Program-made: the position numbers and the translations under genes
Assembly (NCBI GenBank): GCA_049724395.1
Contig: JAUGWO010000102.1
Coordinates: 248,001-312,000, forward strand
From: Spongospora subterranea f. sp. subterranea
Taxonomy: Eukaryota
Direction of reading: 5' to 3'
Length of the DNA stretch: 64,000 nt
Notes under the pieces: generated by a model
Databases searched by the model: none
The model's input: the letters and a program-made list of their open reading frames with translations, nothing else
Told to the model about the DNA's origin: nothing
Shown here: one piece after another, positions 16,248 to 58,559 of the stretch
How the letters are laid out: every line of letters begins with the position of its first letter
Position numbering within the stretch: position 1 is the stretch's first letter

Positions 16248-16982
16248 CATTTGTCGGAAGGATGGCTACGAGAGGTGATCGTCGCCATACCGCTGTGGCC
16301 AAGTTCAGAAAGCAGTTGTTAGTACGGCGTCTCCTAATCAGCGCATGATTTAGCGGCTCAGAGCTACGTTGTCGGCGATGAACCGCTTGAATAGCGAATA
16401 CATCAACCTTCCTGACGCTGATGAATTTATGTACAAAATGGACGTGAGTCGATGTAGGTCTCGTATGGCATCACGTCATTTACAGTATCACAATTGTTCA
16501 AAGGTTGCCTTACCCAGCTCACAAGTCGATGTGAGCTCAAAGCCATGTAAACCCACTGGCAAAACAGAGCAATCTGTTCGATGGACCCCCAACGCGACTC
16601 AATGTCTGATTGACGAGCTGGCGAAAACGAATCGCAACCCGATTTTTAAGTCTGAAAAGGACAAGATCAAGTTGCTGGTTGGACCGAAATCATGAAAGGA
16701 CTTGCCAGGGCAGGCCATTCTGCTTACGAAACAATTGTGATGCTGTAAAGGACGTGATGCCATACGAGACCTACATCGACGGCGTCCATTTTGTACATAA
16801 ATTCATTAATGTCCGGAAGGTTGATATTTTTCGCGATCCAAGCGGTTCATCGCGACAACGTAGCCCTGAACCCGCTAAATCATGCGCTGATTAAGAGACG
16901 CCGTACTCTAACAACTGCTCTCTGAACTTGGCCACAGCGGTCTTGCAACGATCACCTCTCGTAGCCATCCTTTCGACAAATG
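16248..16982. repeat. Long imperfect inverted repeat: arms 16248-16498 and 16730-16982, ~230-nt spacer
   Basis: catttgtcggaaggatggctacgagaggtgatcg...cagtatcacaattgtt is the reverse complement of aacaattgtgatgctg...cgatcacctctcgtagccatcctttcgacaaatg, with scattered mismatches and bulges. Confidence 0.95.
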
Positions 16983-17069
16983 TTGTTTTTTATTTCAAAC
17001 GAAACAACGGCTCGTCATGCGTTGATGCTCAACGAAGTGCAGCAGTTTTTTTTTCTAATAACTAGATTA

Positions 17070-18453
17070 ATGACTCTTCGTGTTGTACAGGCACCTTGCT
17101 GGCTTGTGCACCTCTCTATTACGCTAATGTTCGTCATGGTGATATAACCTATAGTTCTTGTAGAGAATGGCCAGCTGCCAGATTTTATGCCACAGTTCTG
17201 CATCCACGACGTCTAACTGACCATAACGCCGCGTTTTTGGACGATGGCGATATTGTTTGCAACAAGCCCACTGAAGAGATGTTGTCGGACGCAATCGAAA
17301 GGGAACCTTCAATCCAGCATGAAACTGATCTCACCCAGGGGCTTTCATCGGGCCAAAATTCCTCGAGCTAGACAAATCCATCATGGCCAGGAACACGCCG
17401 TCAAAATACACAGCGGCACCACATTGTTGACGGTAGTGTAGAGCACTCACATTCAAGAGACATGTTCCGTTTTCTATCGCCACTGGTTTTCGAGGATCAC
17501 CTCACAGTTTGGACAAAGAATGATTGCGACATCAACAATCATAGAGCCGAATTTATACAAAATTTCTTGCTGGATGCATGAGGCAAGCAGACCCTTTCTA
17601 GCAAATTGACCATCATCAAGTTACATTGGACGACCACAAATATGCGGATCAGTCTTATCCCGAATTTTTATCGTGATTATCGTGTGAATGAATCACGAAT
17701 CTGAGTGTTCATACTCTGAAGAACAGGCAGAATGGATCTGCAAATGTCTGCGTCGCCCCATCACCGACCGCAGTTAGCAATCGATACGAGTAAAGGCGAA
17801 TACCTGATGCGGATGCCGTTATCGTCATTGGCCTATAATGTTTACAAGACTAAACGCTACTATTAACGAGGATACTCCCAAGATTGGATAAGTATTTCGA
17901 ACGGTAATCTTTGACCGGTACGGTGAAGGTATCTTGGGAAATGGTCCGACGAGGAAAATAACGCCCTTTGACCCGAGTGACCTACGACTGGTTTGACCCA
18001 AGTGATTCGCGCGTTGTCGCAATATATCCTCCAAACTAAAAAAGGACCATGATGGAGCAAGTTAATTCTGGAGAACCGTATGAAGGATTAATTATTACAC
18101 CAACGCTAAGAGTTGCCGAATCGATGCTCCTCTTTGGTGAACACCTGAATGTTTTAATGCCAGAAATGGGTGCAGAACAACTATCGGCATATGATGAGGA
18201 ACTATACACCAGGATAACCGGCGGGTCATATTATGGTGACGCCGAGATAGAGGTGGACGAGCAATTCCCTGAACGGCCGGCAATCGATGCTCCAGGTGTG
18301 ATGCCTAGAGAACGCGGTGAAAGCGAATCCTGTCCCTATGGTGATGATCAAGAAACGATTCGCACTGATTATTCCCCTGTTGAAGGAAGGTCGATGACCA
18401 TTCACGAACTTGTTTATAACGCGATGCCCGAGTGTTTTATTACCGAGATCTGA
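17070..18453 (+). pseudogene. Degraded intronless coding sequence (possible secreted protein relic); intact 134-aa acidic tail at 18049-18453
   Basis: Protein-like stretches broken by stops and frameshifts lead into the 18049 ORF; hydrophobic signal-peptide-like start at ~17070 if one frameshift is allowed. Confidence 0.35.
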
Positions 18454-18553
18454 CAGCAAAGGATAGATTCAACACCATATTAAGCTGGACCAGGTCGGAA
18501 AAATGGTTGTGTTTTGTAAAAACAATAAAAGGACGTTTGACAAGACAGAACTG

Positions 18554-19304
18554 TCACCCTCTCCTCTTATCAGAAACTGATACGCGTTCCCTTTCAGAAA
18601 TCTGCTCCAATAACCAAAGAATAGCTGGCTTGAGGCCACTTCCGGTTATTGCTACGACATCGACAACTTGATATGGTCTAGTATCATCCAATGATAACAT
18701 GTCTGATATCTGATCCGACGGCAAGGCACCGGGCAAATCTTGCTTATTGGCCAGAATGAGTACTGGAACACCAACCACGTCCTTGTGTTCTAGAACGGAC
18801 AACAGTTCCTGACGAGCTTCCGATAATCGCTCGACATCTGCAGAATCGACAACGTAGATAATCGCGTTGGCTTCGGAATAGTATTTATCCCAGATCACCT
18901 AGAAATGAAATTGAAAATGTAATCTGACCGTGATAGATATCAGATAATGACCCGTATTCCAGATTGACCACCGACATCCCAAATAGTTACCCGACATGCG
19001 TCAATGTCCAAACGAACAACTGTCGGGTCGCGTTTGAGAAACCCAGACCCCAGCGAATCACAACACATGTTTACGGTTGAACCCAATTGTTGGAGTAGTT
19101 GTGATATTTTCATTCACCTTCATGTTCTTATCGAAAATCATCCGGAACTGCTCGAGACAGGTGCTTTTCCCGGCATTATCTAATCCTAAAACCAACAGAT
19201 CAGATCCACCTAGTGTGCCTTGGTGGAGGTCTACCAATGATCAAAAGTTGATACTCTGGGCGGTCGAACATGATGCATTTAATGTGATTTATGATGGCGA
19301 ACAT
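18554..19304 (-). CDS. ARFRP1: ARF-related protein 1 (Arf-family GTPase)
   Basis: MFAIINHIKCIMFDRPEYQLLIIG/LDNAGKSTCLEQ, PTIGFN, WDVGGQ, IWDKYYSEANAIIYVVDS, LANKQD; aromatic residue 2 and no myristoyl Gly, as in ARFRP1. Confidence 0.88.
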
Positions 19305-19757
19305 CGTCAAAATCGCTCTTGTTGGGTAAAGGGGGAATTACAGCATCGGCATTTCGACCCTTGAGCCGAATAATATCCACGGACTCCACCACTGGCTCTG
19401 GGATTGTCGTTGAAGATGGAGTCGAGACTACATAGAGATGGCGTGCTGCGTCCTGCACAGTGTTTCTAGGAGGCGCTGATGAGTACTTTGGACACCCTGG
19501 AGTCCCTGTCGCTCCAAGTCCTGTCCAATATTCTGGCCATTTCAAACGAATCGCTGGAATGGCTTGCTCAAAAGGCATGTTCTTATCACCGCTTCTTCAG
19601 CTGGTTGGTTGAAAGGCCCAGATGGGTTATGGGTATTTTTTTACAGTAGGGGGTATCAAACCGACGAATTTCCCTGATGTATGTATACGCCCACGAGAAT
19701 CGCAAGCTTTTTACTCTTCACGTACGTGATGAACAGGTGAAAGGGCTGCCCAAGTTT

Positions 19758-19904
19758 GAGGTCGCCATCGAAAATGCGTCTAAACCAGGTTTTCGAAACT
19801 TCAGTACAGGCAGAACAAATTGAGAACAAAACTACTACGCGTTTGTTCTACCTGTAATGATGTTTTGAGAACCTGGGAGAGGAGCATCAAAACCGAGTGA
19901 CCTC
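19758..19904 (+). ncRNA. Candidate pre-miRNA-like stem-loop
   Basis: 19785-19820 pairs with 19841-19876 (36 positions, 3 G-U, 3 mismatches, 20-nt loop); outer gaggtcgc/gtgacctc pairing. No expression evidence. Confidence 0.45.
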
Positions 19905-20229
19905 TAAAGTCAATGTTTCGAAATTGTTTGCCATGGAGTTTCGATAACAATGTAGTACATCTCACTTGATTAACACTTTACATACGAACAAATCAGTACC
20001 TTCAGCAGGTGCAGTCTATCATCTTTTGGAGTACTTGCTAAGTGCATTACCTAGACTTAACACAGGTAAAGGCTGGTAAAGGTGACGCAGCGAAGTCAAT
20101 ACGGTGTCAAGTTCCGCCCGACTCTCAGCTACAAAACTACGATGGCAATTGGCGTTAATGTCTCAAATTTGTTGAACTTGTCAATTGCATCGTCATACTT
20201 TCGTCGCTTTAAAAAGCAATTCATACGAC

Positions 20230-20794
20230 AGCATAATGGTACCAACTAAACGGGATCTCCGCTACATGAAGCTTAATAGCCTTTTCAAAACAATCGAACT
20301 GATCGCAATAAGCAACGATCCCCCATTTTAATAGGTGGTTGACTTTGCATCTACTGGCGTTCCCAGAAAAAAACAAGAGTGTGCGTTGATAACAGATGGA
20401 TCATCACGGTCGGTATCTGAGCGTTCAAAGACTGGCGTTTGGAATTCCTAGCCCTGTGATTATCGGCCGGCATCAAACCGACTTTGATACACGCTGAATT
20501 TGACCTCTTGCAAGACGACAGCAATGACCTGTTCACATCGTCGCCACCACCTCTTTTCCTTGGTGCCAGAACTGCGACTCGCAAAGAGAAACACTTTTCT
20601 GGGGTGTCCGCTTCAGGTTCTGGTAGGATAAATTCACTGCTCCCTTCGCCGTGAATACTTTGCTTGAACGCCAGTAGATTCAACGTCAACAACCTATAAT
20701 AGTAATCGTTGCTTATTTCGATCGGCTCGATTGTTTGAACAGGTTATTGAGCTTCGTGTAGCGAACATCCTGTTTTAGTTGGTACCATTATGCT
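20230..20794. repeat. Imperfect inverted repeat: arms 20230-20362 and 20666-20794, ~300-nt spacer
   Basis: agcataatggtaccaactaaa...atctactggcgttc vs gaacgccagtagat...tttagttggtaccattatgct. Confidence 0.92.
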
Positions 20795-21166
20795 CTCATG
20801 CTGTGCACTACACGGAATACCTGTTTGGATGAGATCAGGGGTTTCGTCAGTCGCAGCCGATCTTAGATTTAATCTCGCGAGAGCTTTGGGTGAAAACTAA
20901 TTCTCCAACGGGAATGCATAGTGCATCTTTCAGGACCATGCAATCCGAAGCACATGTTAAACGATATTGCGGTTTGTTTCAAAACATTATCACATCAAGA
21001 TCGTATAGAGATCGCGAACTTTTGATCAACGAAAAGTTGGTATGTCTTACGAAAATTGCTGCAACGCAATCAAGTATCGAATCAATCTAAAGGTTTCACC
21101 AAAAAAGATGTGGGCCTTTTACACCCAAATGAAACGACTGTTAATGATATTTATTATCGATAGGTT

Positions 21167-24100
21167 TTACAAAGGATGTACACTGTCTTGATATGCAGAT
21201 TCAAAATTGAAAATGACTTCACGCTGTTCGGCAGCATTTGTAGCAGCAAGAAGATTATCGACGAAATTGGCTCGACCCGGAATAGATCCTGGGAGGCTAT
21301 ATCACCCGTGTCAACAAAAACAAAATTGAGAGATTAATACCCAACCTGTCAACAGCTTGACGAAGAAAAACTGCTGCACTAGTTTTATCAAGAGTGACAG
21401 CTGCCCTGATGACCTCAATCAAATCCCTCATTCTGTTCCGGGATAGATCTTCAAGCAAATGTCCAATCAGCTCCCTAAACATGATCGCTCCATACGTTGA
21501 AAAGATTGAAAGCACAGCGCTGGAAGAAACGCAAATATAAATATATATATTGCCTAAAGGATGCCAACTCTACCTTCTGCATTGCTCCCGAGTTCCACCA
21601 ATATCTAATAGATGCCTAATGAACATAAAAACAGCTCGAGCCGCCTCCCTATGTTGTACCCTGATGGCAATCAAGGCGCAGTGCAACGAAGATGGTAAAA
21701 ATCCGCTATTGAATGAAACTGCAGTTAGGTCGGCAATGCAGCGAGACAGAAAATTGAAGTAGTCTTCGCAGATTGTGGGATTCTCTGTTATTTGCTCAAA
21801 ACTGGTAAGTATGGACAGAGTTTTGGCAGCGATGCTGCCAAGAGCTTGAGCGAATAATTCCTGACACTCATCAACGCTGAAAAAACGAATAATCACCCCC
21901 GAGGCAGAAAATAATCACAGAAACTACGCACCTGGAAAATTCGTCGAGGCAGATGGAACAAGTGTAAATGAAGCACGACCAAGGGGCAGCAGGAAAAAGC
22001 CTGCTTAACAAAGGTAGAAGCACGGCGATTATTGGACAATCCCTCCCAGTCGCTCGCAAAGAATATTTCAAAAGACGACAGACTTTTTCCATTAACTTTT
22101 CATCGCGGACAAGGACAACGAGCATTTCTGTAAAAAAGTTATTGAAAACCTAGGGCACCAGAGGCGAAAACACATGATACCTTGCAATAAAGGCCACATA
22201 TCGTTGATGATACGAACTAGTTCATTGCATGAATCGAGATGAATACTTTTGAAAAGATGCGCTAAACGATCCAAATTAATGGAAAGTGTAGAAATATCGA
22301 TTTCCTGGCCATTTCCTAAGAGAAATAAAAATGCTTAAAACACTGACAAACGGCTTGGTATGCAACCATACGTAAAAGGCCCATTGTGGACGATAGACTT
22401 TGTAAAATGGGACTGATCAACTGCTGTAAATGACCTGGAATCGCTTCTGGAGGCCGGGAGCAGATAACGCTGCAGACACCTTCTATGATCTCACTTTGGT
22501 CGTCAAAGTCGAGACTCCCCATCGAACAATAAACCTAAGCTCCATAGAATCAGCCAAAACACAAATTCTGAAAGCAGCTACGAACCGCAATTAGCTGATT
22601 GATATCATGGGCGGCTAAATGACGCGCACAGGATTCACACACAAATTTGAACGCCATTGCAGCCGCTGACTGAGATGCAGGAATGGAAAGTCCCTCAACA
22701 ACAAAACCAAGAAGAGGGCCAATGGATTCTGGATGGGCATTAATCCAGTCCGAATATCTGTTAACGACTGAAACTCCATTGGCAAAAAACTGACTAATCG
22801 CATCTCAAACCTTCCAATAATCATCGTTGATGTATATCTGAGTACGGGATGTGAAGACATGGACAACAAATCCGCCATAACTCGCGGAAGCAGACTTTTT
22901 GACGCAGCGCTCTGAATGCAGGCTATGCATTGACTTTGACGGGCAAACCGCAAATACGCTTGGCATTACCTCTTCCCCAATTTTGATGTTCCTGGCGATT
23001 GATCTAACACTGTAAAGGCAAGCTTCCAGACGATGCCATTGGCGAGGATTTTGGCGATACTCAAGAACACATGGCTAATAACACAACAGTCAGAGACATT
23101 ACGTTAACGGCAGTGTAAACACTACTTCACCTGCATGCAGGATACCAAATGTTCCAGGCAGACTGAACTGTCACAAAAAGAAGATATGTCTAACAATGCA
23201 TCCGCTGCTTGATAGCGAAATCGTTTCTGCTCCTCATCTTGTTCTGATAGTCCATCGTAATCCGAGGGAAATTCGATCACCACTCTGATTTTGTCCATCG
23301 CAGCAAGAAATTCATTTTGATACCGTTGGCCGACAGCATTCGCTTGGTTCGCATCAGCACGAGAAAGCGCTTCCAGATTCGCTGCGAGTATGTACCTAGA
23401 TACAAGACCGCTGAATTGGTGTGTCGACACTCTATAATGGGCCAGCTGACCAAAAGTTAAACGAAAGGATCGAGAGTTCAGGATCAGGGTTAGAAGTGCA
23501 ATTGATAATCAATTGCAGCAAATCGGTCGCTTGCGGCGCTTGCTCTAATATCCAAGCAACATTCGACTCCGACAACTGAGTGAACACTTGCAGAAGTGAT
23601 CGGCATTGGCTAAAATCTTCGTCATTGACTAGTTGACAGTAATGCGGCCATAAGGAAAAAACAGCAGTGGAAAGCTAAGAAACCGGATCAGGGAGTAATC
23701 TAAGTTGATCGCGATTGCTTGTACTCACTTGCGACCGGAGGTTTTCAAGGTTATGTTGGTCAGCAAATACAATGAATGCGGTTATGACATCGCACGCCAC
23801 CTAGATCCAGAATCAACACATTACCAGTCGAGTAATACAGCTACTGACTTGAGACACATCACTGCAAGAAACAGCTTGGAAACAATCAGCAAGAATTGTC
23901 GAACTCAAAACACCGGCTTCAGGAACGGCTGCAAACGCATGCCGGACCCATGATAAAAGACAGCGTAAAACCATTCGTTGAACGCGCACGTCGTTCGATC
24001 GACGGATAAATTCTAAGGCCGCATTATTGCAGCATCGACGACAAAATCAATGTTTGAGGCAAACCTGACAAAAGAGAAAGTACTTTCGATGCGACAGAAA

Positions 24101-24815
24101 TGCACAAAGAAGCTGCACGAGGACTGGCAAGACGTGAACGCCTGGCAACCGTGTCGCATTCTTCAGGAAGTACAGTTAATATATGCAGTAGAGCGTGAGC
24201 AGTGGTTCCATGGCCCCCATCTATAGTATTAATCATTGAGAACTATGGCAACAATCAAAGTGTTTGATGAAACCATACTGAGCATAGAGACTAGCTGTTC
24301 AACAGGTTGGTCCCATTCCTGCATTTGAACTGCAAGAGAAGCTATGGCAAGTGACAATTGTGTCAAGATGATTTCGGTCCCTGTGATATGGCGAGAAAGA
24401 TAATTGAGAACCGCATCCCTAAAAGCGACTCGATTTTCCGGCGGCAGATCGCTGTAGGAAAACGACACCTGCATACACATTCATTATCGGTCGCACGCAA
24501 AAGGCGCCTAAGTACCTTATTGTATAGGGTATTTGCTGCAAACCAGACCGCCTCTGGTGAGGCAGATGTCAGCTGCAAGATATCATGGGAAACCTACCAG
24601 AATACAAACTCAGAAACTCAAGATTATTGCGAAAAAATAGCGCCTTTGGCATGAATTAACAATACCTGCCAAGCTTGATTCGTTCTTTGAAATTCCTTAA
24701 GAGCTAGGTCTGCTTGTTTTTTGGCTGCCGGATTGGGGTCGTAATATAGAGCGTGGACGGCAGCGAGGACGGCTTGTACAGCGGGAGACGGCTGCGATCC
24801 TGATGCCTCCGCCAT
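21167..24815 (-). CDS. TNPO3: Transportin-3 / Mtr10 (importin-beta family), multi-exon
   Basis: AVHALYYDPNPAAKKQADLALKEFQRTNQAWQ, WFAANTLYNK, ILTQLSLAIASLAVQMQEW, ILTVLPEE, EKVCRLLKYSLR, ENPTICEDYF. Confidence 0.88.
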
Positions 24816-25410
24816 TTCTTTGAATTCCTCCGACCTGAAGTCGCTAAGATCTGTTAACAGACTCCAAACTGCACGGTGTTCCCGGAGCCGTTTACACCAA
24901 GGGTCCTTTATAGGGTCCAGTTATGGCTACCAGCTATCAGCTATGTGTACTCGATAGTAATTCAAATAACGGACCGCTCCGCGCTCGCAGGCTCGATCGA
25001 ACGGACTAACATATGGTCTGGATCTCATGCAAACGGCCTCCAATTTTTACATAACGAGGAACACTCCATGATCCCAAAGGATACAATCGCCTTATCTGCA
25101 GTTTTCCTCCGTAATATACTCTATCTGAACCTGTTATATTGTTCATCTGCCTTCGTGTGATTAAGGTTTCGGAATGGAAAATATTTATTGATTGATCATG
25201 ATTTTATTGAATGAAGGTCATGAGCGGAGCGACATTTGGCGCATCCCTTGGGATTATTCCGTGGACCGTGTAACGAATAGCCCGTGCGATGGCCGCCCAT
25301 TGGCCATTGCGGCATTACTTCGCTTCTATCGCCAGAAGCATTTCTGGTTTCACTCGGTTCGCGCCTGAAGCCTTTTGTTGGATTAGGGGTTACGTGTTTG
25401 GGGCTGAGAA

Positions 25411-25849
25411 ATGGCAAAGCATCATCCGGATCTTATCATGTGCCGCAAGCAGCCGGGCATTGCCATTGGACGTTTGTGCTCGAAATGCGACGGAAAATGT
25501 GTCATTTGCGATTCCTATGTCAAACCCAATACGCTCGTTCGTACCTGCGATGAGTGCAATTATGGAAGCTTTCAGGGTCGCTGTGTTATCTGCGGTGGTA
25601 TGGGAATTAGTGATGCATACTACTGCACCGAATGCACTCTTCAGGAAAAAGATCGAGACGGTAGTTTCAACCGATATATTCCAGACTTAATCGTATTGAC
25701 AGTAGTTCATAGGATGTCCGAAGATTGTGAATCTCGGGTCAGCAAAGACCGATTTGTTCTACGAAAGGAAGAGTAAGTCGTGTTTGTTTGCTGCTCTCTT
25801 TGAGTTTGCTGATGGTGTTCTTGCAGAGTATGGGTTCAAGCCGCATTAA
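25411..25849 (+). CDS. PHF5A: PHD finger-like domain protein 5A (SF3b subunit, Rds3), 3 exons
   Basis: [23 protein letters not shown]...[18 protein letters not shown]...[29 protein letters not shown]. Confidence 0.97.
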
Positions 25850-25926
25850 CATTCCATGGGCTTCTTTTTACGAGTACGAGGACACATGCTTATCTATCTA
25901 TATTAAAGCCATTTTCCCCCATTTAC

Positions 25927-26583
25927 TTATTGGGTTTGTCTAATTACTATCGTCCTACTTAATCCAACAGATCGGTTCAGTTTTACACCCTTTTGCTCAC
26001 GATACCTTCTCATATAATTGCCGAGGTTATTAGAGCAGTTTGTTTCTTGGCGGTGGCAACGGGAATCAGATTGTGCTTCGTGGCAGCATTGCCGCGCCTC
26101 GCGATTTTTCCCTTGTGGATGCAAATCAATCATTGATGATGCAGACGGCAATTCTTTCATTTTGCATTTAGCTAGATCTCTGATTGCATCTCCTGTCTGT
26201 AAGACGGCCATTTTCAAAGTCTGAATCATCTCACCATAATCTAACGTTTGTACTGGAGTCTTCAAGGGTTCATTTAGTGTTGCATCAAAACTTGCGTTTT
26301 TTTGCTCAGCCGTAGGAACATGTGTAGCCTCAGTCGCATTCTCTCGAATTCGAGGCGATTTTGTATCGCTCACAACGGATTCGCTATTGAAGTGAGAGAT
26401 AGTTCTCTGATTGGCATCGTTGCGTTTCCTGCGGTGCTCAGCTTTATCGTTATCGTAATTCCGTCTCGTCCCTCTTTCTGACGATTTCCTTCTTTTAGAC
26501 AATTTCCTTCGTTCAGACAACACATCATCTGCGCCTGCATCTACATCGTGCTGTAGAGTATTCGTTAGAAGACTGTAGTGCAA
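25927..26583 (-). CDS. Hypothetical basic/low-complexity protein (start uncertain)
   Basis: 218-codon ORF, no recognisable motif. Confidence 0.35.
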   Translation of the reverse strand: MHYSLLTNTLQHDVDAGADDVLSERRKLSKRRKSSERGTRRNYDNDKAEHRRKRNDANQRTISHFNSESVVSDTKSPRIRENATEATHVPTAEQKNASFDATLNEPLKTPVQTLDYGEMIQTLKMAVLQTGDAIRDLAKCKMKELPSASSMIDLHPQGKNREARQCCHEAQSDSRCHRQETNCSNNLGNYMRRYREQKGVKLNRSVGLSRTIVIRQTQ

Positions 26584-26861
26584 TCAAACAAGAATGCCCA
26601 CTAACGCAGAGCAAATGGCGATGACGTTCTAAGAAACGAGCAACTGCTGCAGAAAACATCACTCAGCGACGCCAAAATCAGAGTACAATGAGATCGATCG
26701 ATATTGATAACTTTCGCCGTTTAATGAAGATATGGTCATTACATGAACTTCAGTTTTGAATTTTTTTCGTCAACGGTTTTCAAATAACTATACATGCTCC
26801 TGAATCTTCACCGCGCGATTGCGTCCTGCACGATTGTTATCCGCGCTTCTAAGAGGCGCTG

Positions 26862-27312
26862 ATGGATACCCAATTTTTGATCCAGCATGGCAACGCCATG
26901 CCTCATATTGACGCTTCAGATGAAGAATTCAAAATTGAAGCAAGCAAAGATGGATTTGACATTCAGTTGACCTTTCAGCCACCGAACAGCCCTGATCTGA
27001 ACGTTTCGATCTGGGTTTCTTTCGTGCCATCCATTTCCTTCAGCATCAACGAGCACCAAAAAAACTGACGAACTTGTGGATGCTGTCAAAGATTCGTTTG
27101 CGAAAATTGATAGGGAAAAATTGAACGATATCTTTTTCACTCTCCAGCAATGCATGATAGAGATAAAAAGTCAAGGGGGGCAAAAAATTACAAGCTGTCT
27201 CATATGGGCAAGGGATATCTCCGGCGCCAAGGAGACCTACCCGATGAATTGCCATGTGCCCATTGCAGTTGTGTATCAAGTCAAGCAGGATGCACACATG
27301 GTTAATGAATAA
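26862..27312 (+). mobile_element. Degenerate Tc1/mariner (DD39D-type) transposase fragment
   Basis: FLIQHGNAMPH...QPPNSPDLNV then, after a frameshift, DLGFFRAI...DELVDAVKDSF...LNDIFFTLQQCMIEI. Spacing between second and third catalytic positions is 39; second D mutated to G. Confidence 0.85.
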
Positions 27313-29137
27313 AATCCTTCATTGGACCGTCTCTTTAAGCTCCCTATCCATTTCAACAAATGAAACCGTGACAGCGTCGACAAGTTAGGCAAACCCCAAG
27401 ATCATCCATCCGAACGAATCGTGATTTGATATTGGAAGGTGATTGATAAATCAAGAAACGCAGATGCAAAAGCTTTGATTATGAAGAACCTTCATGAGAC
27501 CTTTATTTCCGAACGGAGCAAGTACTTTAAGAACACTTCTGCAGGAGGAAAAACTCTGAACAACTATCTGTTTTTGCACGACATCTAGTTTCAACCTCAT
27601 TCTGAGGTTCATTAACAAATTTGACAAGTGCATACAGACATTTATATATCCATTCAGCGTTGTTCGTGCTTTTGATTGGAAGAGATTACCATCATGCGGA
27701 TGTGCTGGCTTCGGTTGCTTCGTAAATGATGGGGGACTCCTCAAAAAGATGCATTTCTGGTGGAGAGGATATAAGCCATTCCAAGGTAGTATGCATAGTC
27801 GCATCGATTACGTCGTCAGGGCCGTAATCGGCAGGGTCTTGACTAAAAACCTATTGAATAATTTTACAATATTGGCCATGCCAATGCTACCTTTGGACTT
27901 TCCAGCCGTCCTCATCCCCTTCTTCAAGAGTACCAGTGGTTGTCGCAGTCGTGGCCCATCTACACGGTCTGGCTCCAGCGACACGAGCCATGATCCCCCG
28001 TCGCAAGCAGTTAACGGCCATCATAATTGATTAATGATTTACAGTATTGACAGTATTGGTGATCAAGGTCATGTGTTGTGGGAATTGTGGGGGGACCCCC
28101 CTTCTGTACAGGTAGATACACTGACCCACATCACAACTCGCACTTTGATCTCACCACCTGATCTGTTTCGCCATTTTGACCCATTATCGCTGTCATGTTT
28201 ATCAATATTGTTCAGTTTGCGGAATACTGATACCGCGATATATCGTGAGAGTCATGTGTCATTGGGTTGTGAAAAGGAAATGTGCAACACGTCGATTTAT
28301 TTTACCAAACTACACAAGTTTCCCTCGACGCCTTTGGTTTTTGGTTCGCCTTCCCCGGGCAGACCGTCCTTGTTAGAATGATTGATTTTGTTCCCTTTTT
28401 CTCACATCATTCAAAGATCCAACAAGCGGTCCACCGATAAGCAGAGGAAATCAAAAAAGTTGTATCTGTGCTAATGCCGATAAGCTGTCAACAATTACTG
28501 CAGCTCTCCGATGTAATGTGATGTTGAAATTTTTGTGTTCTACCAGAGTCCATTTCTGCTCAATATGTAGGATTTTTCCGTTTATCGACACCCTCTATCA
28601 ACTGTTGTCAATGATCTGGCATCGTCTTTTTGTCCACGTTGAAGAAGCTCACGATTAGCGTTGTTTGATGAGCTTTGGATCAACTTTTGCGTTGCGTTTC
28701 CGATATGACTTTCTGACAGATTGACCACATCGCGAAATGGTATATATTGCCGCCACTTCAAAGAGGAAGGCGGAAATTCCTTGACTATCAAGCAATTTTG
28801 AACTATTTCCCAACCCGAAAATTCACACCGATTTATCTGCCTGGATGGGGACGCAGTCTCGAATCTGGACTGATGAAATTTTACCGTCGTTGGCAAGATT
28901 ACACACTAAAAAGACCAACTTTGATGCGCTTTGTTTCAACATCGATTCGCTGTGTATACACCCACCTGAAAATTGCAGTCAAAATCGAGCCCGTCTGCCA
29001 GTTGGCGGTATACACTGGTCCTATAGACCGTTCCTATCGGCCCTGTCGTGATTGGATACAGTGAAGTCAGTATCAACTGAAAACCGTAATCGTTTAAGCC
29101 GTCTTGGTTCATTACTACAGATTATACTATACCCAAT

Positions 29138-30079
29138 ATGGCGCTGGTATCACCTCCCAAGCCATGGGAACGGTTGCCGACCGATCCAACCATATCTACT
29201 GCGCCTTTAACCCAAACTTCATCGTTTCCTTCGGTGAACCCTGGGATTTTCGGATCCACATCCCCATATTCACAGCCATCGTATGGATTAAGTCCCAGCT
29301 ATCAAAGCAGCAGTTGGGGGATGTCCAATTCAGGAGCTTATGGGTCATCTTACCCGATGTCGCAATATCAACACTATTCCCAGCAATCTCCTTATATGGC
29401 AAGGTCCTATAATGGTGCAATGATGACGCATCCTATGGATCAATATAAGGGGACGCCCATCAACACCTTGGTCACCAGTGGACACACATTTATGTCTGGA
29501 GTTCAACAACAAGTCAGTTCGTTCGGTCGATTCTCACAGATTCTTCACATGAATCTCGACGCCTTACACGGATCGTTCTCATCATTTCTGCAATTGCTAA
29601 CTAACATTTCACTCTTAAAAAATGAGTTCAGTTCTTTTTTCGGCACGTTTGGGTCTTTAAGTTCTGTGTATGTAATCTACATCAAGTTAAAATCGGTACT
29701 ACTAAGGCTGCTTGGTCGGCAAAATGAGGCGACCAAGCATGAATTCGATGTTCTATGGAAAGAGACATGCCAAGGCCAATGGGGCTGGCTGCCAACGTTT
29801 TTAACGCTATCTTTAGCGGTTCTTTTGGCCAAGAAATTTTTTCAGATGATGCTTTCCGATACCCATGACATGAACAATACGGAAAAGACTCTTCCTGCCG
29901 GATTGCCGCCCAACGCGCCGTGGATGAACCCATCAACTCCAGCGTGCTCTCCATCATTTGGAACAAGCGCACCATTCGACTTTGACCCAAGCAATTCTCC
30001 TTCCTTCATGACAAATCAGGGCAATTGGACTCAGAGCTCGTTTGGATCAGCCCCCAACGCATTCCAGTCAACTTGGTGA
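29138..30079 (+). CDS. PEX13: Peroxin 13, SH3-less (plant-like) type, intronless
   Basis: N-terminal PPKPWE, Tyr/Gly/Ser-rich region, SFGRFSQILHMNLDALHGSFSSFLQLL, membrane segments. Confidence 0.82.
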   Translation: MALVSPPKPWERLPTDPTISTAPLTQTSSFPSVNPGIFGSTSPYSQPSYGLSPSYQSSSWGMSNSGAYGSSYPMSQYQHYSQQSPYMARSYNGAMMTHPMDQYKGTPINTLVTSGHTFMSGVQQQVSSFGRFSQILHMNLDALHGSFSSFLQLLTNISLLKNEFSSFFGTFGSLSSVYVIYIKLKSVLLRLLGRQNEATKHEFDVLWKETCQGQWGWLPTFLTLSLAVLLAKKFFQMMLSDTHDMNNTEKTLPAGLPPNAPWMNPSTPACSPSFGTSAPFDFDPSNSPSFMTNQGNWTQSSFGSAPNAFQSTW

Positions 30080-30226: not shown

Positions 30227-31681
<1,455 letters not shown>

Positions 31682-44969: not shown

Positions 44970-45059
44970 TCTAAATATCACTCGCCCTCCACGTAAATTA
45001 AGTATTATGTCAACAAAAAATACCAAATAATTTGTGTATTCTGCGATATATTTTACAAT

Positions 45060-45435: not shown

Positions 45436-45637
45436 CGCCTGATTCCTCTTCTGGCTCGGCACTGCCCTGAACCGCGGCGATCTGGTCGCGAATGAGTGTC
45501 CCTCAAAACTACCCAGTTCTGAAAAAGAACATCGCGTCGCTGTATTATGACTTTTGAAAGCACCAATGCGGAAAGCGCCCAGTGATACATATGAAATATA
45601 ATATGTATTGAATTTACATTTCGAAAATCAGAAGCGA

Positions 45638-46343
<706 letters not shown>

Positions 46344-46857
46344 GATTTAGCGAGCCCGTGCGATCGGCGTTATGAATATCCCTATGTAATGAGCCAGGGA
46401 AGCTGCAGGTCAGGAGCGAGATGAATTCCACGAGACAGGCGCCCATACTGCTGGCTACGAGCCAGTCCTGAGGCCTGCCTGGTACATACAGATAGATCCG
46501 ATCAAAAAGAGGCTGCAAGATTCAGCACCCAAGGCAGGCAGAGTAGAGTTCTGGTTTTTGGATCGATGGCCGACGGCCAACACACCCACTAATCGATTAC
46601 GTTAGAATGTGAGTCGAAACTTAGTCCGCGATTCCGATTATTCCCCCGGGCATCTCGGGCGAAGTTTCTGGGGTCAACTACCCCAAGCGCCAATATCTAT
46701 TTTGACTTTCTTTTTGGATAATGTTTTAACTGAAGACTTTCAAACGGGAACGACAACACTCTGAACAGGTATTAAATGATAAATAATCACATCTGTGTAT
46801 TTAATATGAAATCAGTCCTATGATCGATTACTGATATAGATATATGAATCTCGCATT

Positions 46858-49800: not shown

Positions 49801-50795
49801 AGTTAAATCTATCCACGAGGGACTTGAACTTGGATTTCTCGCTCTCTAAATCAGTCTTCGCAACGTTATACAGGGCATGTCACCTTGCCACAAGAAAACT
49901 AACCTGAAGCTTCAAAATTCTGCTGGGGTACTCATGATTTTCAACCTTTAACCTCTACATAACCGTCAAATACCCTCAAACAACTAGAATTGTGATGCAT
50001 ACAATTAATTCCTGCTCTTTCTGTTCAATCACGATCGTAAGCCTATTTTGCTCCTCCTGTGCTAGAACTAGAAACTGTACCAATTCTCAGTAAATTTCTG
50101 AACCGGCATCATCATACATACGCCTTTGAGCTCCTGTTGTGCTTGAAGCGCAGCTTCAAGCTGAGACTCATTTGTTGAACGAACAGCCTCTATTTCCATA
50201 GACCGAACACGCTGAATCTCTTTGGCTTGCTTGAGTTGCATGCGATAAAGGTTTGTAGATGTTTCCAATGCTTCAATTTCTTGTTGAGCCTGAATCAGAG
50301 CGGTTTTGAGACGCTCGATTTCCTGCAAAGCGTTTCCGTTTTCGGGAACAACAGAAACCGGAATCTGAACAGCATTGACAGAAAGGTCATCTCCAGCTTC
50401 GCTACCAGAATGTGGAGTGCCGTTAGAGGATGCAGCAACATCTTCTTCTTGCGTCCATTGTTCAACGGCATCCATTGCCGAATCGCAGTTAGTCACCGTA
50501 TCCTCATTGTCATTGTTTGAATCCTGGTCCTGAAACCAGTATCAGAATACCGAAACAGAGGCATCGACCTTGGCATTACCGGAACCATATTCCGGATATC
50601 GTTCAATGCGACCCACTGATCCATGGACTCCTCCTTCTCCGTTTTCTCAGTCCACTGGTCGACAACAGCCAAAGCCGAGTCATCCAGGGACGCGTCCATG
50701 TCGTTGGAGTTGATCGGCTGCGGCGCTGGCGCCGGACTTTCATTTCTGATCGACAGGATCGAAAGGATATCGCAATTCACAGTGGGATCGGACAT
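46858..50795 (-). CDS. Large protein: coiled coil + Ig-like + PH-like + disordered linker + muniscin-type mu-homology domain
   Basis: Heptad-rich exons (49.3-50.4 kb); YNVNADDLGRVIRV (AIR9/SCAB Ig-like); KLKVREGKTTTIKEPYS...SRDLIVLTVR (PH-like); ANVSETVSCNMRSGNVSDLNVVGMVTL, VLRYSL, VCWKV, PVLVQF (MHD). Confidence 0.65.
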
Positions 50796-51401
50796 ATCCG
50801 ATCAACACATCGACGATAATGAAATGGAGCGAGCGCGATGTGTTTGATGATATGGGATTTGATAAATGTGTATCTGTCTCAGACAGAAGAGTATTAGCAC
50901 ATCAGCCCCCGCTATAATACAGTGAAGATCGTGTCGAGCGACCCGTCGTCAGTGAGCTCAGGCTCTAGACCACCGGTGGCCGTTTAGTCCGTGTGCGAGT
51001 GGGCCTGTGAGTGCGGCCCCTTGTTCTGCGTGCCCGTATATACAGCGGTCGACTGCTGGTGGTCCCACCTGGTGACCGGCGTTGACGACCTTCAAAGGGG
51101 TATTCGGTCGGAAATCAGCAGCTCGCTACAAGTTGTATCTAGTGGGCTCCTTTTTTGGATCGATTTCAGATATCGTCGGAAGATATTCGCGAACGTCTGT
51201 CAATGAGGTTCGGGGCATCCAGTTGTAATACACGATATATGAATTCCGTCTGTTTGTCACCGTTCATCGTCTTCGAATTATAACCTTCGCCTTGCTATAT
51301 TGAAAAGGGCCATATTATCACCTTAAAAAAAATCGATCGTACATTATGATCAACGTCTTGTCAAGTACGTCAGTCCTGGCGAAATAACCCAGCGCCAAAT
51401 C

Positions 51402-54400
51402 ATGTCGTTCGATCGTAGGCGCCGGAAAATTGTTCAGGTTGGATTGTTGCCACCTCGATCACGATCCAAGCTCGATCAACATGGGCCGAATTCAGCCCGC
51501 GACCCCGACGACAAACGATCGCGATCCGCCGCCTCAGCTCGAATGGAAACTCCAATAACGGATCGCCCATCGAAGTTCAAACGCGATCAGTTGCTAGCGC
51601 GAATGCAGAAAACGGAGTCGTTCTGCCATCCGCGTCGGTCCATCATCAACGCCAAGAACAAGAAAGAGATCCTAGCGATCATAGCGCCATCATTACAAGA
51701 GGCTCAAGACGATCGTAACTAATTTTGCTTGCGGTTGTTGATTGATATTGATCGGATTTGTTGAATTGTTTTCAGTATCTGCTGATCCACAGTCCCCTGT
51801 TTTCAAATGGAGTCTACGAGAAATCGCTGGAATCATGCCCAAGCTTGGGAATGGGGTCGATGCTGACTCCCAGGTCCGAGTCCTTTCGGCTCGTCGAAAT
51901 TCATTTCATTACATCAAAGGGCGAGTGAACTTCGAAAGCCAGAGTCTGCAGGCGAATTTCGAGGGGATTCGATCTCGCCGATCTCTCGATGATGGCGAGG
52001 TCATAGTTGAGGATGGCGACGACGACGACGATGATGGTAATACGGCTAGGTCTTTTGAGGAACAGCCATCCGACCCACATCGTCAGATGCTGGCACTGAT
52101 CCGGTCGAGGCGCTTGCCGAGTCGATGGCGCAATTGCATCAATCGATAACAGCTCAACTCCATCAGGTATGGTCGCGTCATGGCACTCCATCAGAACCCA
52201 ATCACGCTAAGGGGTGATGGCAGATGCCTGCACTTCGAAGGGAACTCGATCTCAACTACGAGTTGCTGATGTCGTGTCCTCATCCAAAGGAGCAGGGGGC
52301 CAAAGATAAGGTTAGGATGCCATTCAAAACGATTACAATATTAACTTAATTCGGGTTTCGTCAACAGTTCGATCATTCATCAGATATGAACAAACTGTTC
52401 GAATCATTACGATTGCGAAGGTATAACCCCCCCCCCCCCCCCAATCGTTTATTCGTTCATAAAAAATCATTTTGACGGTTCAGCAAAGGCGACCATGGCA
52501 TTACCGATCCTCGACAGCTGAAGCGTCATCAGGATCTCATATCCCTCAATGAGGATATTGTAGTCGCCGTTAAAGATATAAACGCGTATCTGGCCGAGGT
52601 CAACCACCAAAACGGCAAGCAATCCGAGCTCAAACGATCAAGTCTTGATCCAGCTCGTTCCGTTGAACATATGATCCACATCAGCGAACTTTTCCGTCGC
52701 GCGTTGCGAACGGTAATGCAAAAGTTCTTCGGAATCCGAAAGATTTCCCGATCTGGAAAATTTAGGTTATGGAACACGATATCAATATTGCATGGGCCTT
52801 GGAGACGTGTTGGAAAGGTGCTACGCTAACTAATGAGGCGTGTTTGGCGAGAGAGACTGCGTTTATTCATCATGGTGAACGACAACTTTACCGCATCGCC
52901 CTATAATCGGATAACCGGATCCTGAATCGTGGCGTCTTGTAGTGAATAATCAACTGCAGAATGTAAACTATCGTAATATAGGAGGGAACAACCTATCGAA
53001 CGAGAGGTCTTCGGCAGTGGCCAAACTGCAAGACTCATTCGATAACGATGTGCTGAAGAAGAGGATGGAATCTTTACAGAATGGTAGGCAGTCATGAATA
53101 TGTCTGGATCATGGGATCATATGAAAACGAGGGATAACCGCCCCATACAGAACTATATGAGATGAAGAAGGAGAATATATCGTTGAGATCGCGGGTGAAG
53201 GCGAGCGAGCTTCTGACCAGGCAACGGCTTATCAGCCATTTATACCACGATGATGAGGACCCGAACCAACCACAGGTCCTGGCAATATTCCACCAACTCT
53301 GGTGTAGTCTTCTCATTAATTGAGTGTCAGAATCGGTCGGATGAGGCTAAACCATCATTCCAACACGGCGAGCCACAATATTTCCCTATTCACGTGCCCA
53401 CAACCGCTATCGTCTCTGGGCCTCGCTCCACTGGTCCCATCTCGGTAAGCAACATGTGATGTGTCCTGCATAGCACAAACGGGGATCACCAAATCACCAA
53501 TACAAAATATCATATCGTGTGTGTAGAGGAGATCGATTCGCTCAGAGAATACCACTCCTCGCCCCAGACAGGCCTCAATGGTCAACGAACAAGATGAACC
53601 CATCGACCATGAACGGGAGTTCTTCTCTGCCCGATCCATTGGTCTAGAGAGAATGTCCCTCCCGAGGTAATCTCTACCTGTCTATTTTCCAGCTCAATCG
53701 ATCGAATTGAGGGACAGTACGACGCTCTCTCCTGTCGCTGTCGATCTTGTCCTAGGTCGCGTTCCACAAGTTATCACCCATGCACTCAACGTCATCACCA
53801 GCTCCAAAGTAGGCCCAATCCTGGTTTCCAAACGACGCTCATATTCGCAACACGGCGATTCCCATTTCAGGAAATGATTCCTCCGTTGAGTCATACTGAA
53901 CTATATCGATTATCGATTGAGGCGTTGGTGGAATCGACTGCCTATTATGGATATACACCCGAGGCCATCGTAATAACTCAACAATAGTCGATCGCATAAG
54001 ACCGTTGACCGGCAACTGAATTGTTCTGCTCAGGTGCCATCGGTATCGACCCCAATCTTACAGTTTCCCGATTTCCTCTTGACCTTCTTCCAGCTCCGAT
54101 ACGGTACCAAGAAAGAGTCAGATGTACAAATGGGAAGGTGGTGAGATTACCTGATGGTTGGGCAGCAGAAATTTCAAATCGGTTTTCAGGTTCTGCTTCG
54201 AACTGCAGCAAATCCAACTTGAAGATATTCGGCCTAGTATATTTGGAACTCTGCCTTTATTGTCCATTATTGGAAAACTAGTAGGGTTGGCCAAATCCAA
54301 CCTACACAAGCAAGCGTTTAGCCTGATACTGTTCGGATTCGCTCAATGGCATTGTAATGAAAAGGTCAAGAAGGTTTGTGAATTGATGATCACGTGCGGT

Positions 54401-55518
54401 TTTTTTGGGGAAGATATCGATTTACTGGTTGGCCAGATCTATTTTGAAGCTCAAAGAGATTTGTTCGAAACAAAGGTCAATGGGTTAATGACTCAAACCG
54501 GCAACTCTGAGGAAGGAGAAAACCTCGAGCCGAAGGAAATCGGCTTCTTTGAAGAGGGACTTTTGATCCCATTGGACATAGCAGAAGATATCCTCCAGAA
54601 GACTCACAAGCATTTCCAACTGAAAACATCGATCGAGATTGGTCAGAGCCATCTGGAAGGGGAGACTGTACTTGCTGATGGATCAAAGTATGGCGTCTGA
54701 AATGGGGAAACGCCGTTCAACATCGCTGATTGGCTCGTGCGTATAGCATTGGACACAACCAGATGCACATCTTGCTGACGATGCATCACATTCATCGGGG
54801 GATCGAGATCCGAACACGGATCAAGGAGCTGAAAGTGGAAGACATCGAATCACTATTCCGTCGGTTTGATGCTAGGCGCTGGTATGCGCTCCGAATATCA
54901 AATCGATTGTTTGAACTGATCTGAATTTCCTGCTGATGCAGTGGTCGCATGCCGTTGTTGCAATTCATATCGTGCATTCGCAATCTACGGTGTGGTGTCT
55001 CCGATGATGAAATACATGCCATTGTTCGCCTGTTCGATACGAGTTCAAAACGATCTCAGGAAGTCGACTATAAGAAATTCGCCAAGTTCTTCAGCCCAGT
55101 CACTCTTTTTGTCTCGGTAGACACAAGTAAGCGAAATGGGAGCGGCGATCGTCTTCAATTGTTGATATGTGGTTTTTGAATATTTGAGTGGTATCCTCCC
55201 TGATCACAATGTGGTCAAACGAAACAGCTACGAACGAATCAGAAGCTATGAGAAAATTCGTTTGTAATGATTTCAAGCAACGAATATCGGAGCTAAACGA
55301 GTTTACCGCCATCATCCAAAGCATGAAGCCAGGTAAAAAACTACAAATTAAGCGATAGTCGTGATTTGACTCAACTTGTCGAGATAGATATCACCGTTCA
55401 AGACGCGGCAATCTACTTTCAAGAATGCCTTGATATATCAGGGTCAAATTTCGTCACAAGAAGCACGTTTCTGGCAATGACCCGAACACATTGTCTATTC
55501 AATAATTTATCCCATTAA
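51402..55518 (+). CDS. Large hypothetical protein with C-terminal EF-hands, multi-exon (could be more than one gene)
   Basis: IESLFRRFDARR..., VSDDEIHAIVRLFDTSSKRSQEVDYKKF, FQECLDISGSNFVTRSTF; exons linked by GT-AG introns. Confidence 0.55.
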
Positions 55519-55539
55519 TATAACTGTATATAATCATTT

Positions 55540-57433
55540 CTAGGTTGACGGTTGCTCAATTTTTGCAATTATTCGTTCAAAAAAATCGCATGATTTTTTC
55601 ACTTGACTGGAGAGAAATGCAAAATTGGCTGCAGTGTCACTCTGCATATTACCTTCCTTATTTTCGGAATTTTCCAGTTCATCCATGTACATGTGCAGCC
55701 TTTGGAAAAGGCTGTCGAACGCGGTAACAAGCTGTACGAATCAAATATATAATCATCACAGCGTCCCGACGTAAACTCCATACCTGCCCTATCTGATGAA
55801 CATCGTCCTCATTGATAAGATCAGGCTTGAGCTTTGATTTTTTTTGTGCAGCTTTAACAGTTCTCGACCGGATCTTGCGCCTGAAGTAAGGTTTCGAAGA
55901 GCGCAATTGCTGTTGATTTTAAGCTCATGATTATGAATTTACAAGAGGCATACCTGGATTTGCAGCTTCAAATGCGTGTTTTCTTTGCCGAGTTCGTTGA
56001 TCGAATGATTCTTTGTAGAAATTTCTCGTTTATTTCGTTTGATGGTTTTTGTCAAATCAGCGATGTCGGAAAACCCAAACGAGGACAAAAATTCTTGAAA
56101 GTCGTGGGTTAAATCTGGCGTCGTTATTTGTGGTGATGGGATGATGACCTGCAACACATTAGACTTCTTTCCAGTATCTGGCGCATAATTACTGTTTTGG
56201 TACTGGAATGTTCATGGACCGGCGCTGCACGAGCTTGAGCCCATGCACTCGGTCTCACCTGAACATTGCTCGGCACTTTGGCTGTGGCCCATTTGGCCAT
56301 CAAAGGGTCTCCATGCTAAATGCAGACATATAGCCTGTCGAATGGAATATGAACGCGTTCACTGACCTTGCTATCTTGCCTATTGACCAAAATAGATTTC
56401 AAGTGAGCGACCAATGCCACATCTAATCCAGGATTGTCATCGATGGTGATTGAGCACAGCGATTGATTGATTTGCAGCATTTCAATCAGTGCACAAATGG
56501 CGACATTTGTGAGCTGATTTGAGCTAAGATTGATATCCAGAACCCATTTGTCGTCTGTCAGAGCCTCGATCAAGCTAGGATACTCAGTAAAAGCATCACG
56601 AATTCAAATATATCTCATACCATTTAACCCCAATATCGCCAAGGCGGTTATCTTGTAAGTCCACACTCAGGACGCCCAATGTAGACATACCCGGCATTCC
56701 ATCATTGTCACGTAATCTATATTGCCATTTCGCCACATCTCGACGAATATTATGATTGGAGATTACATCGCTGAAATGAGAAGCGCTACTCTCGTTGAGC
56801 CCGCAATTGATGAAGTGCCAGTGAGTGATCTCAGATGATATTAGCTGTTGCATTATTCCTAATTCAAATATATTAGCGTTGAATATGAGCGCAAACAATA
56901 TTGATTACTGGATAACAGCCCAGAATCTAATACCACATTTCTTATAAATATCGATTTCAGTGTCTTCAATGAGCCCTTTACTATTGCAGGAATCCGCTTT
57001 GCAATACATGGAGTTACAGAATCGAATTCTACACACGTTAGTTCATGGTTACGACTTAGACCTCGGATAAGGTTTTTTGCAAGCTCATTTTCGGTTGACC
57101 GTGTCGATGACGGCAAACTATTAACACGAGCCTTTGTGTGTAGACGTTGTCGTTCTGAATTGGAGATGCGAACGACTTTGAACGTTGGTACAGCATATAA
57201 TACTTTGAATAATGATTCGGCGATAAATGCAGTGGTTGAATGGATATCGATATCAAGGGTATCTTCCCCTAGCAGTCTCATGACGGAATCAGTAACCTGC
57301 ACATGCTATGCTATCAGTGATGACAGGTTCGAAGAGCAACGCCCCCGACCTGAACGGATCGAGCATCACATTTTTGTTTGAACAGCGTCTGTTTGGCATT
57401 GTAATCTTGAAATGTCTGTAATTTAGTTGACAT
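55540..57433 (-). CDS. CEP78: Centrosomal protein 78-like LRR protein, multi-exon
   Basis: ISNHNIRRDVAKWQYRLR, LQDNRLGDIGVK/CLIEALTDDKWVLDINLSSNQLTN...LIEMLQINQSLCSITIDDNP, followed by coiled coil. Confidence 0.8.
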
Positions 57434-57892
57434 TTTATTATGAACAATGGCAGCAGTGAGAGCTCTCCTAGCCAATCCACTCAAAGAGAACAGAATTTCA
57501 GTTACTGAACACTACTGTAACTGAACAAGCGGCACACTGGGCCTTATACCTATACTGCTCTGTGAGACTGTGCCCAAGTGGGCAAGGCTGACGAGGAGAG
57601 ACAGGTTACCGGGGCTGACAGACAAGGATAAGCGGGAAAGGTGGGGTGATGGGCCCCGGTTGTTGACAATAAAACGGTGGATGGACCGGGTATTTATTTA
57701 ATGGCAGATAGGTTGTCGTCCGAAGAGGTTCATGTAATTCGACAAGTTGGTGAAGACAGCCAACAGTGAGAGACGACGCTGAGTCTGTCAGCGATTCCTG
57801 ACGAAGCATGACGCTTAGCCAATGTCGAGATCATGAAGAACATGTACGCCGACATGACTGGATTTATATCTTTTTTTTTTGTATGTACAAAA

Positions 57893-57975
57893 TTGCACGA
57901 TTATTTGCACGATTATTGTTTTGTCCAAGGTGCACTATTATGTGCACTATGTGGCGCTAATACGCACTATTGCAC
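57893..57975. repeat. Short degenerate tandem repeats (tgcacgattat / gtgcactattat)
   Basis: ttgcacgattatttgcacgattat and gtgcactattatgtgcactat directly before the 58-kb inverted repeat. Confidence 0.7.
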
Positions 57976-58443
57976 ACCTGGCGCTTGGATCAAACTCCAG
58001 AGACTGCAGCAACATCTGCTGTCCAAAAAAAGGACGAGGTATTCATAAGGATTACGGCGAGCACCAAGTCAAATGCTGGAAAAGCGCAACGGTGCCAGAG
58101 GAGTACGTCGGACATGCACCACCGGGGAGGCCCAAAAGCATAAAGCAGTGGAGCGAAAAAGGTACCAATCCGACGCGTACAAACGCGCGCGCCCGAACAC
58201 GTGTGTTCAAACGCCTGGAAGAAGTCAATTGTACGCGTAGGATTGGTACTTTTTTCGCTCCACTGCTTTATGCTTTTAAGCCTCCGCCGGTGGTGCATGT
58301 GCGACGTACTCCTCTGTCACCGTTGCGCTTTTCCAAAATTTGACTTGGTGCTCGTCGTAATCCTTATGAATGCCTCGACCCTTTTTGGACAGCAGATGTT
58401 GCTGCAGTCTCAGGAGGTTGATCCAAGCGCCAGGGTGTGCAAT
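57969..58443. repeat. Long imperfect inverted repeat: arms 57969-58182 and 58229-58443, ~46-nt loop
   Basis: attgcacacctggcgcttggatcaa...acgcgtacaa vs ttgtacgcgt...ttgatccaagcgccagggtgtgcaat. Confidence 0.96.
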
Positions 58444-58446
58444 CGC

Positions 58447-58559
58447 AACCGCCTTGGCGATATTGGGTTAAATGGTATGAGATATATTTGAATTCGTGAT
58501 GCTTTTACTGAGTATCCTAGCTTGATCGAGACAAATGGGTTCTGGATATCAATCTTAGC
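58447..58559 (+). repeat. Inverted duplicate of a CEP78 exon-intron-exon segment (source 56523-56649)
   Basis: Identical to the reverse complement of 56523-56649 except a 1-nt and a 13-nt deletion; contains the whole 46-nt intron gtatgag...tcctag. Confidence 0.95.

Follow-up and report, generated by a model that had tools for sequence, protein, structure and literature searches.

Inverted duplications between genes of Spongospora subterranea as putative sources of hairpin small RNAs, one of them matching a Mutator-like transposase

A 64-kb stretch of the genome of the potato parasite Spongospora subterranea f. sp. subterranea (contig JAUGWO010000102.1, positions 248,001 to 312,000; hereafter the window) holds four imperfect fold-backs in the gaps between its genes, which we call H1, H2, H3 and H4. 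We think it probable that these fold-backs are sources of small interfering RNAs (siRNAs), in the manner of the maize-type Mu killer locus and of hairpin RNA (hpRNA) loci. They would function like such a system, and their membership in it is putative and unproven. The evidence for this reading includes H2, which is copied from a transposase of the MULE family, and a small-RNA pathway that has been described for the sister genus Plasmodiophora.

Results

Four mutually unrelated fold-backs lie between genes

We located the hairpins by self-BLAST of the window and by alignment of their arms, and we scored their folding against dinucleotide shuffles, 12 for the long hairpins and 40 for H4. All four are imperfect inverted repeats able to form an intramolecular duplex, with folding z-scores from −6 to −57, and they sit in the gaps between intron-rich genes that Pfam identifies as FAR11/STRIP-like, Arf-like, transportin-3, PHF5 and Yippee. 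The initial annotation of this DNA had described four fold-backs that were unrelated to one another and lacked target-site duplications (TSDs), and on each of these points we agree with it. The self-comparison of the window shows no sequence common to any two of H1 to H4, and no direct repeat longer than 4 nt flanks the arms within 3 nt of their ends (best match 0–4 nt). The description of arms broken into perfect blocks of 15–30 bp fits H1 and H3 and fails for H2, where the longest block is 18 bp, and for H4, where it is 8 bp, or 15 bp if G:U pairs are counted.

Five local repeats in the self-comparison were significant, and all five are inverted: H1, H2, H3, H4 and a copied piece of a leucine-rich repeat (LRR) gene that lies next to H3. 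Two more were weak (E 0.007). The seven direct-repeat families in the window are two-copy, 25–40 nt long and 70–84% alike, which is chance-like, and five local inverted duplicates against no convincing direct ones give a two-sided p of 0.06. An Rfam search of the window returned no match, and a Pfam profile search that covered 133 chosen frames of the window found no family above its cut-off in any hairpin frame. Three window frames were without a match in the exact-sequence collection, and the codon-position spread of the arm mismatches was uninformative.

All 20 sequencing runs listed for comparison consist of assembled contigs, which give neither strand nor transcript ends. Runs X3 and X8 are called RNA by guess, and joints that skip an intron occur only in these two.

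H2 matches the end of a MULE transposase in reverse

The two features at H2 are as follows.

20209..20362, plus strand: H2 inverted arm, a reverse copy of transposase codons from ~596 to 645
20372..20922, minus strand: 3′ portion of a MULE/SWIM transposase, with breaks, corresponding to residues 550–746 of protein P0001, which includes the native arm 20666–20797 and the loop

The H2 arms (20227–20362 and 20666–20797) align over 137 columns at 82.5% identity (E 1e-30), enclose a loop of 303 nt and fold with z-scores of −16/−26. The H2 frame matches P0001, a S. subterranea ZSWIM/MULE protein of 759 residues, at 78% identity, the sole match among 248 candidates. P0001 scores 38.6 bits with PF21056 (cut-off 27.2) and 25.2 bits with PF10551 MULE (below the cut-off of 27.6), FAR1/SWIM clusters are among the Atlas feature matches, and the protein has the RNaseH-like DDE domain and the SWIM or zinc-knuckle C-terminus by which the MULE family is recognized. 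With tblastn, residues 596–632 of P0001 match the plus strand at 20209–20319 (78%, E 1e-11), and the minus strand from 20922 to 20372 matches P0001 at 71% over 184 residues (E 1e-68), in an alignment with breaks. In two DNA runs the contig depth of the transposase region, which is a sum over contigs and not a copy count, is 7–15 times background and continues at a multi-copy level past both arms, and this indicates that the source of H2 is a multi-copy family. In sequence, H2 repeats the C-terminal coding part of this multi-copy MULE transposase in inverted orientation. The earlier proposal of arms that arose from coding fragments by inverted duplication holds for H2 and for the LRR copy.

The end of P0001 bears on whether the fold-back belongs to this one copy or to the family. 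The strand opposite codons 635–644 of P0001 can encode all nine of the residues with which the protein ends, and the next best of 2202 placements reaches only six of nine. In the window, H2 has the same junction, with the pre-junction residues at 20392–20372 and then seven of the nine end residues at 20358–20332. An intact transposase gene thus carries the fold-back and ends within it. The H2 fold-back is a family trait, common to the gene for the intact 759-aa transposase. A scan of viral contigs for P0001 confirmed none of 12.

The family hairpin also appears among the RNA contigs. One contig in X3 (depth 179) and one in X8 (depth 19.8, 1168 nt) each apparently lie on both the H2 loop and the inverted arm, a placement taken from matching depths and end distances, and 183 unplaced letters of the X8 contig fit the implied second piece. 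We read these contigs as transcripts of other MULE family members that contain the hairpin. The loop letters of the window's own H2 are present in X3 at a depth of ~10.

H3 adjoins an inverted copy of a neighbouring gene

The features at H3 are as follows.

57969..58182, no strand: H3 left arm, at single-copy depth
58229..58443, no strand: H3 right arm, with a minus-strand 72-codon frame that holds one stop
55960..57400, minus strand: neighbouring LRR gene with introns, limits approximate, from which the piece 56520–56649 was copied
58447..58562, no strand: young inverted DNA copy of LRR gene 56520–56649, 3 nt from the end of H3
58501..59046, minus strand: spliced, apparently non-coding transcript that heads for H3 and is antisense to the LRR gene over its 3′ part

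The H3 arms align over 216 columns at 92% identity around a loop of 46 nt, with an E of 7e-161 as one palindrome and folding z-scores of −38/−57. At H3 neither DNA run has a listed difference from the window. Other loci share 58134–58188 (~83%) and 58200–58229 with H3 and diverge thereafter. The initial annotation had closed its series of hairpins at 58559, a position that belongs to a fifth inverted duplicate, the LRR copy, which it did not describe. The LRR gene itself has an open frame over 55960–56700 only once three GT-AG introns are removed, and several border pairs yield an open frame. Its best PDB sequence match has an E of 5.5e-6, and the further matches are tropomodulin and axonemal LRR chains. 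The copy aligns with 56520–56649 over 130 columns with 115 matches, one substitution and two gaps (14 gap columns), and it retains the 46-nt GT-AG intron (56575–56620).

X3 contigs cover the 58501–59046 transcript at depths of 36–121, and a joint among them skips 58542–58604 with CT..AC ends, from which alone the minus strand is assigned. The longest ATG frame in this transcript is 42 aa. An allele in which the segment between the LRR repeats is flipped was rejected as the source of the X3 contigs, as the expected depth is ~55 and the observed depth 21.5.

The surroundings of H3 show several further peculiarities. X3 contigs at a depth of ~20 are unspliced over the LRR part 56187–56832 and stop on both sides, and they could be antisense or unprocessed RNA. 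A 36-nt imperfect palindrome at 56484–56519 directly borders the LRR piece that was duplicated, at its start, and is a possible trigger of the template switch. Just outside the left arm, 57893–57941 contains a 12-nt tandem unit and a third related copy. Just past the LRR copy, inside the spliced intron, 21 nt at 58567–58587 match an H3 arm at 19 of 21 positions and are possibly templated filler. At 59226–59400, back to back with the minus-strand transcript, an X3 contig with a depth of ~3055 covers an unannotated frame.

H1 has a probable sister copy, and H4 is a short stem-loop

The features at H1 and H4 are as follows.

16248..16498, no strand: H1 left arm, ~350 nt upstream of the minus-strand FAR11/STRIP-like gene (Pfam N1221, DUF3402)
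16499..16729, no strand: H1 loop, common to a second locus with a loop ~110 nt shorter
16730..16982, no strand: H1 right arm, from self-BLAST and arm alignment
19785..19876, no strand: H4, a short stem-loop of pre-miRNA size with a stem of ~36–38 bp (E 1e-5)

The H1 arms align over 255 columns at 89.8% identity (E 3e-89) with a loop of 231 nt and z-scores of −41/−52. In both DNA runs a contig near single-copy depth joins 16540 to 16677 within the loop, and in both the excess depth over H1 amounts to ~710–760 single-copy nt, a rough figure that corresponds to about one extra copy. It is therefore probable that a single sister copy of H1 exists and that its loop is shorter. X3 contigs cover H1 at a depth of 9–20, against 1.6–1.9 in the next two bins downstream and ~200 in nearby genes. 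Exact-match scans of metagenome contigs for H1 and H3 patterns returned none.

H4 has a pre-miRNA-like fold, with a minimum free energy of −45 kcal/mol on the plus strand (z −8.8) and z-scores of −6/−9. The contigs of DNA run X2 break at H4 with a 30-nt overlap at 19820–19849, which suggests that this stretch is shared with another locus.

A mariner-like relic and base composition

Near H4 and H2 lies what we take, from a familiar motif and without a Pfam match, to be a Tc1/mariner-like transposase relic (26880–27384 on the plus strand and 19518–19565 on the minus strand), with a depth 5–10 times background. Four of four runs have contigs that connect 19518 with 26880 across opposite strands, which makes the two pieces halves of one transposase in inverted orientation, 7.4 kb from each other. 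Each breakpoint adjoins a short stretch that the two sites have in common (19447–19501 and 26820–26891; score 51, where random sequence reached at most 43), and a weak 46-nt inverted pair (27071–27116 and 27341–27386; 78%, E 0.007) lies inside the relic.

The GC content of the window is 45.6%, and 45.7% is reported for S. subterranea (PMC12883290). Within the window, GC rises to 50–57% at 5000–13000, which covers a GTPase-like gene, a kinase and a G-alpha gene, versus ~44% elsewhere.

Discussion

The enzymes for such a system have been described. S. subterranea and Plasmodiophora brassicae have Argonautes and one Drosha-like protein with two RNase III domains, and P. brassicae yielded no RNA-dependent RNA polymerase (RdRP) (PMC4471660). 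In 2026, P. brassicae was reported to have 21-nt, phased, 5′-C-biased RNAs, mainly from intergenic and transposable element (TE) loci, palindromic ones included, that are made by the Drosha-like protein without an RdRP; the source of the double-stranded RNA (dsRNA) was declared unknown because the RdRP is missing (PMC13547706). The class that the initial annotation called uncharacterised had thus already been described for the lineage. Its reading of the fold-backs as hpRNA or microRNA (miRNA) loci gains from the inverted coding duplications, from the Argonautes and the Drosha-like enzyme and from the 21-nt RNAs of the sister genus, and on the side of transcription from the low RNA-contig cover of H1 and H2 in one RNA run.

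The proposed course of events is this. Transposon or gene fragments would be duplicated locally in inverted orientation, perhaps by a fold-back template switch, and transcription of the fold-backs would then give long hairpins, of which we infer both strand and extent. The H1 transcript may run divergently from the FAR11/STRIP-like gene, that of H2 may come from transcription that continues past transportin-3 or may be the mRNA of the element itself, and that of H3 may be the RNA from 59046 to 58501. The Drosha-like RNase III would likely dice the hairpins into 21-nt RNAs, and these would guide Argonaute against the parent sequences, which would be the MULE family for H2 and low-copy parents for H1 and H3, possibly with the LRR gene among the targets. 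More broadly, and only as a tentative proposal, plasmodiophorids, being without RdRP and Dicer, may draw their siRNAs from frequent fold-back duplications of pieces of transposons and genes, and one Mutator family may have fixed such a fold-back within its transposase gene, the hairpin in the mRNA being cut by the Drosha-like enzyme.

Several observations weigh against the fold-backs being siRNA sources. The arm mismatches of H1 to H4 comprise 15 that would be G:U on the plus strand, 16 on the minus strand and 27 transversions, so there is no strand bias and the spectrum looks neutral, as expected of neutral decay. Neither X3 nor X14 has RNA contigs on the arms of H3, and X8 has none on H1, which is not proof of silence in either case, and the depth arithmetic fits a 58501–59046 transcript that stops within the LRR copy. 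Other MULE family copies are abundant in X3 (contig depth 179–535), which argues against full silencing. No parent sequence could be assigned to H1 or H3, for which other loci gave only partial traces. The H1 frame 16354–16692 on the plus strand has what we take to be a Myb/SANT-like look, which is unconfirmed because the frame had no protein match among 1.84 billion representatives; the H1 frame 16610–16891 on the plus strand had no homologue among 10 candidates, and the stop-free 56-aa frame of H3 none among 12, in both cases longer proteins only. Finally, the copy numbers are depth sums, and one DNA run is possibly the source of the assembly itself.

Alternatively, the fold-backs could be neutral scars left in transposon-rich gaps by active transposons and by DNA repair, perhaps transcribed at a low level and yielding no small RNA of consequence. 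We regard this as unlikely. It would account for the unbiased mismatches, for the position of H2 and H4 among MULE and mariner-like relics, for RNA cover that is low or absent and for a MULE family that is still transcribed. Against it, an RNase III and Argonaute pathway is present and acts on palindromic loci in the sister genus (PMC4471660, PMC13547706), the H2 fold-back is retained in an intact transposase gene, and H3 is without a listed difference from the window in the DNA runs.

A second possibility, which we consider distinctly improbable, is that each fold-back is a miniature inverted-repeat transposable element (MITE) or another non-autonomous DNA transposon whose arms are its terminal inverted repeats (TIRs). 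H1 with its probable sister copy and H4 with its seemingly shared stretch might suggest this, but the arm tips lack TSDs longer than 4 nt and do not bound many copies: H3 is single-copy, H1 has about two copies, and H2 takes its arms from inside a coding sequence, with multi-copy depth continuing past both of them. The initial annotation had named terminal repeats of a multi-copy transposon as an outcome that would count against it; H2 is multi-copy transposon sequence, yet not a terminal repeat.

The suggestion that the small RNAs are exported to silence transcripts of the host plant is very unlikely. It draws on S. subterranea being an obligate intracellular parasite with RNA interference, and nothing in our results points to host transcripts, as both arm sources that are known, the MULE transposase and the adjacent LRR gene, are parasite sequence. 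That the inversions are assembly chimeras, a caveat also raised at the outset, has almost nothing in its favour beyond the two inner junctions of H1 not being seen bridged among the contigs listed, since X1 contigs without differences (20289–20648 and 20642–26929) bridge both inner junctions of H2, at H3 some X1 and X2 contigs lead from the flank across one arm into the loop and others from the loop across the second arm, so that H2 and H3 are not chimeras, the H2 junction recurs in the separately deposited P0001, and the arms differ by 8–18%, the 10% divergence at H1 likewise arguing against a chimera.

If the fold-backs are siRNA sources, their nearest counterparts are the palindromic miRNA and phased-siRNA loci of P. 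brassicae, which belong to the same order, are mostly intergenic and TE-derived and use a Drosha-like enzyme and Argonaute (PMC13547706). The 234 miRNA precursors there, 58–973 nt long among the rows listed of Table S8, overlap in size with H1 to H4 (92–735 nt). In density, four hairpins in 64 kb here stand beside about one miRNA locus per 108 kb in P. brassicae, a comparison that is not like for like. Small RNAs have been shown in P. brassicae, whereas the Spongospora hairpins are known here from DNA and RNA contigs. The main text of PMC13547706 does not trace its loci to inverted duplications (the word "inverted" occurs 0 times in it), and Spongospora is mentioned 0 times in that main text and two supplements.

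For H2, the closest mechanism is that of Mu killer and of the inverted duplications that silence Ac/Ds, where a partial inverted duplication of transposase sequence gives a hairpin by read-through (PMC3440606, 10.1101/2020.01.07.897926). H2 alone of our fold-backs is such a duplication of transposase sequence, and it shares the Mutator superfamily with Mu killer. Mu killer, however, is a single derived locus with TIR copies that silences in trans, whereas the H2 fold-back is internal, is without recognised TIR sequence and is borne by a family that includes an intact-frame gene, and its silencing is putative. The Drosophila hpRNAs hp58 and hp-ODox2 have spliced transcripts, arms that come from a neighbouring gene or TE and a gap in RNA-seq over the arms like that at H3; RNA-seq drops out over hpRNA arms (PMC10317233). 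Those hpRNAs are Dicer-2-dependent with proven targets, and H3 differs in that the piece copied from the neighbouring gene is not part of the main stem and could pair only over long range (1.8 kb) or in trans.

Many of the palindromic loci of Naumovozyma castellii are reportedly transposon fragments. These siRNA loci, from which 74% of siRNA reads there derive, are likewise served by a non-canonical RNase III and Argonaute, in an unrelated lineage with an unrelated enzyme and RNAs of 22–23 nt (10.1101/2019.12.12.873604).

The class is known from the sister genus. What is new here is that the origin of the arms can be traced, and that the transposase gene of a Mutator family has a hairpin built into it. 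Should the hairpins give no small RNA, they are ordinary transposon debris. It would be an unusual, self-limiting arrangement for the frame of a transposase gene to stop within its own antisense copy, and, judging by the listings, we found no description of one in open-access full text on MULE hairpins or on Spongospora and plasmodiophorid small RNAs. These loci offer a concrete candidate answer to the question of where plasmodiophorids obtain their dsRNA, and if the proposal is true, every transposase mRNA of this Mutator family would end in a hairpin cut by the Drosha-like enzyme, a transposon carrying its own Mu killer.

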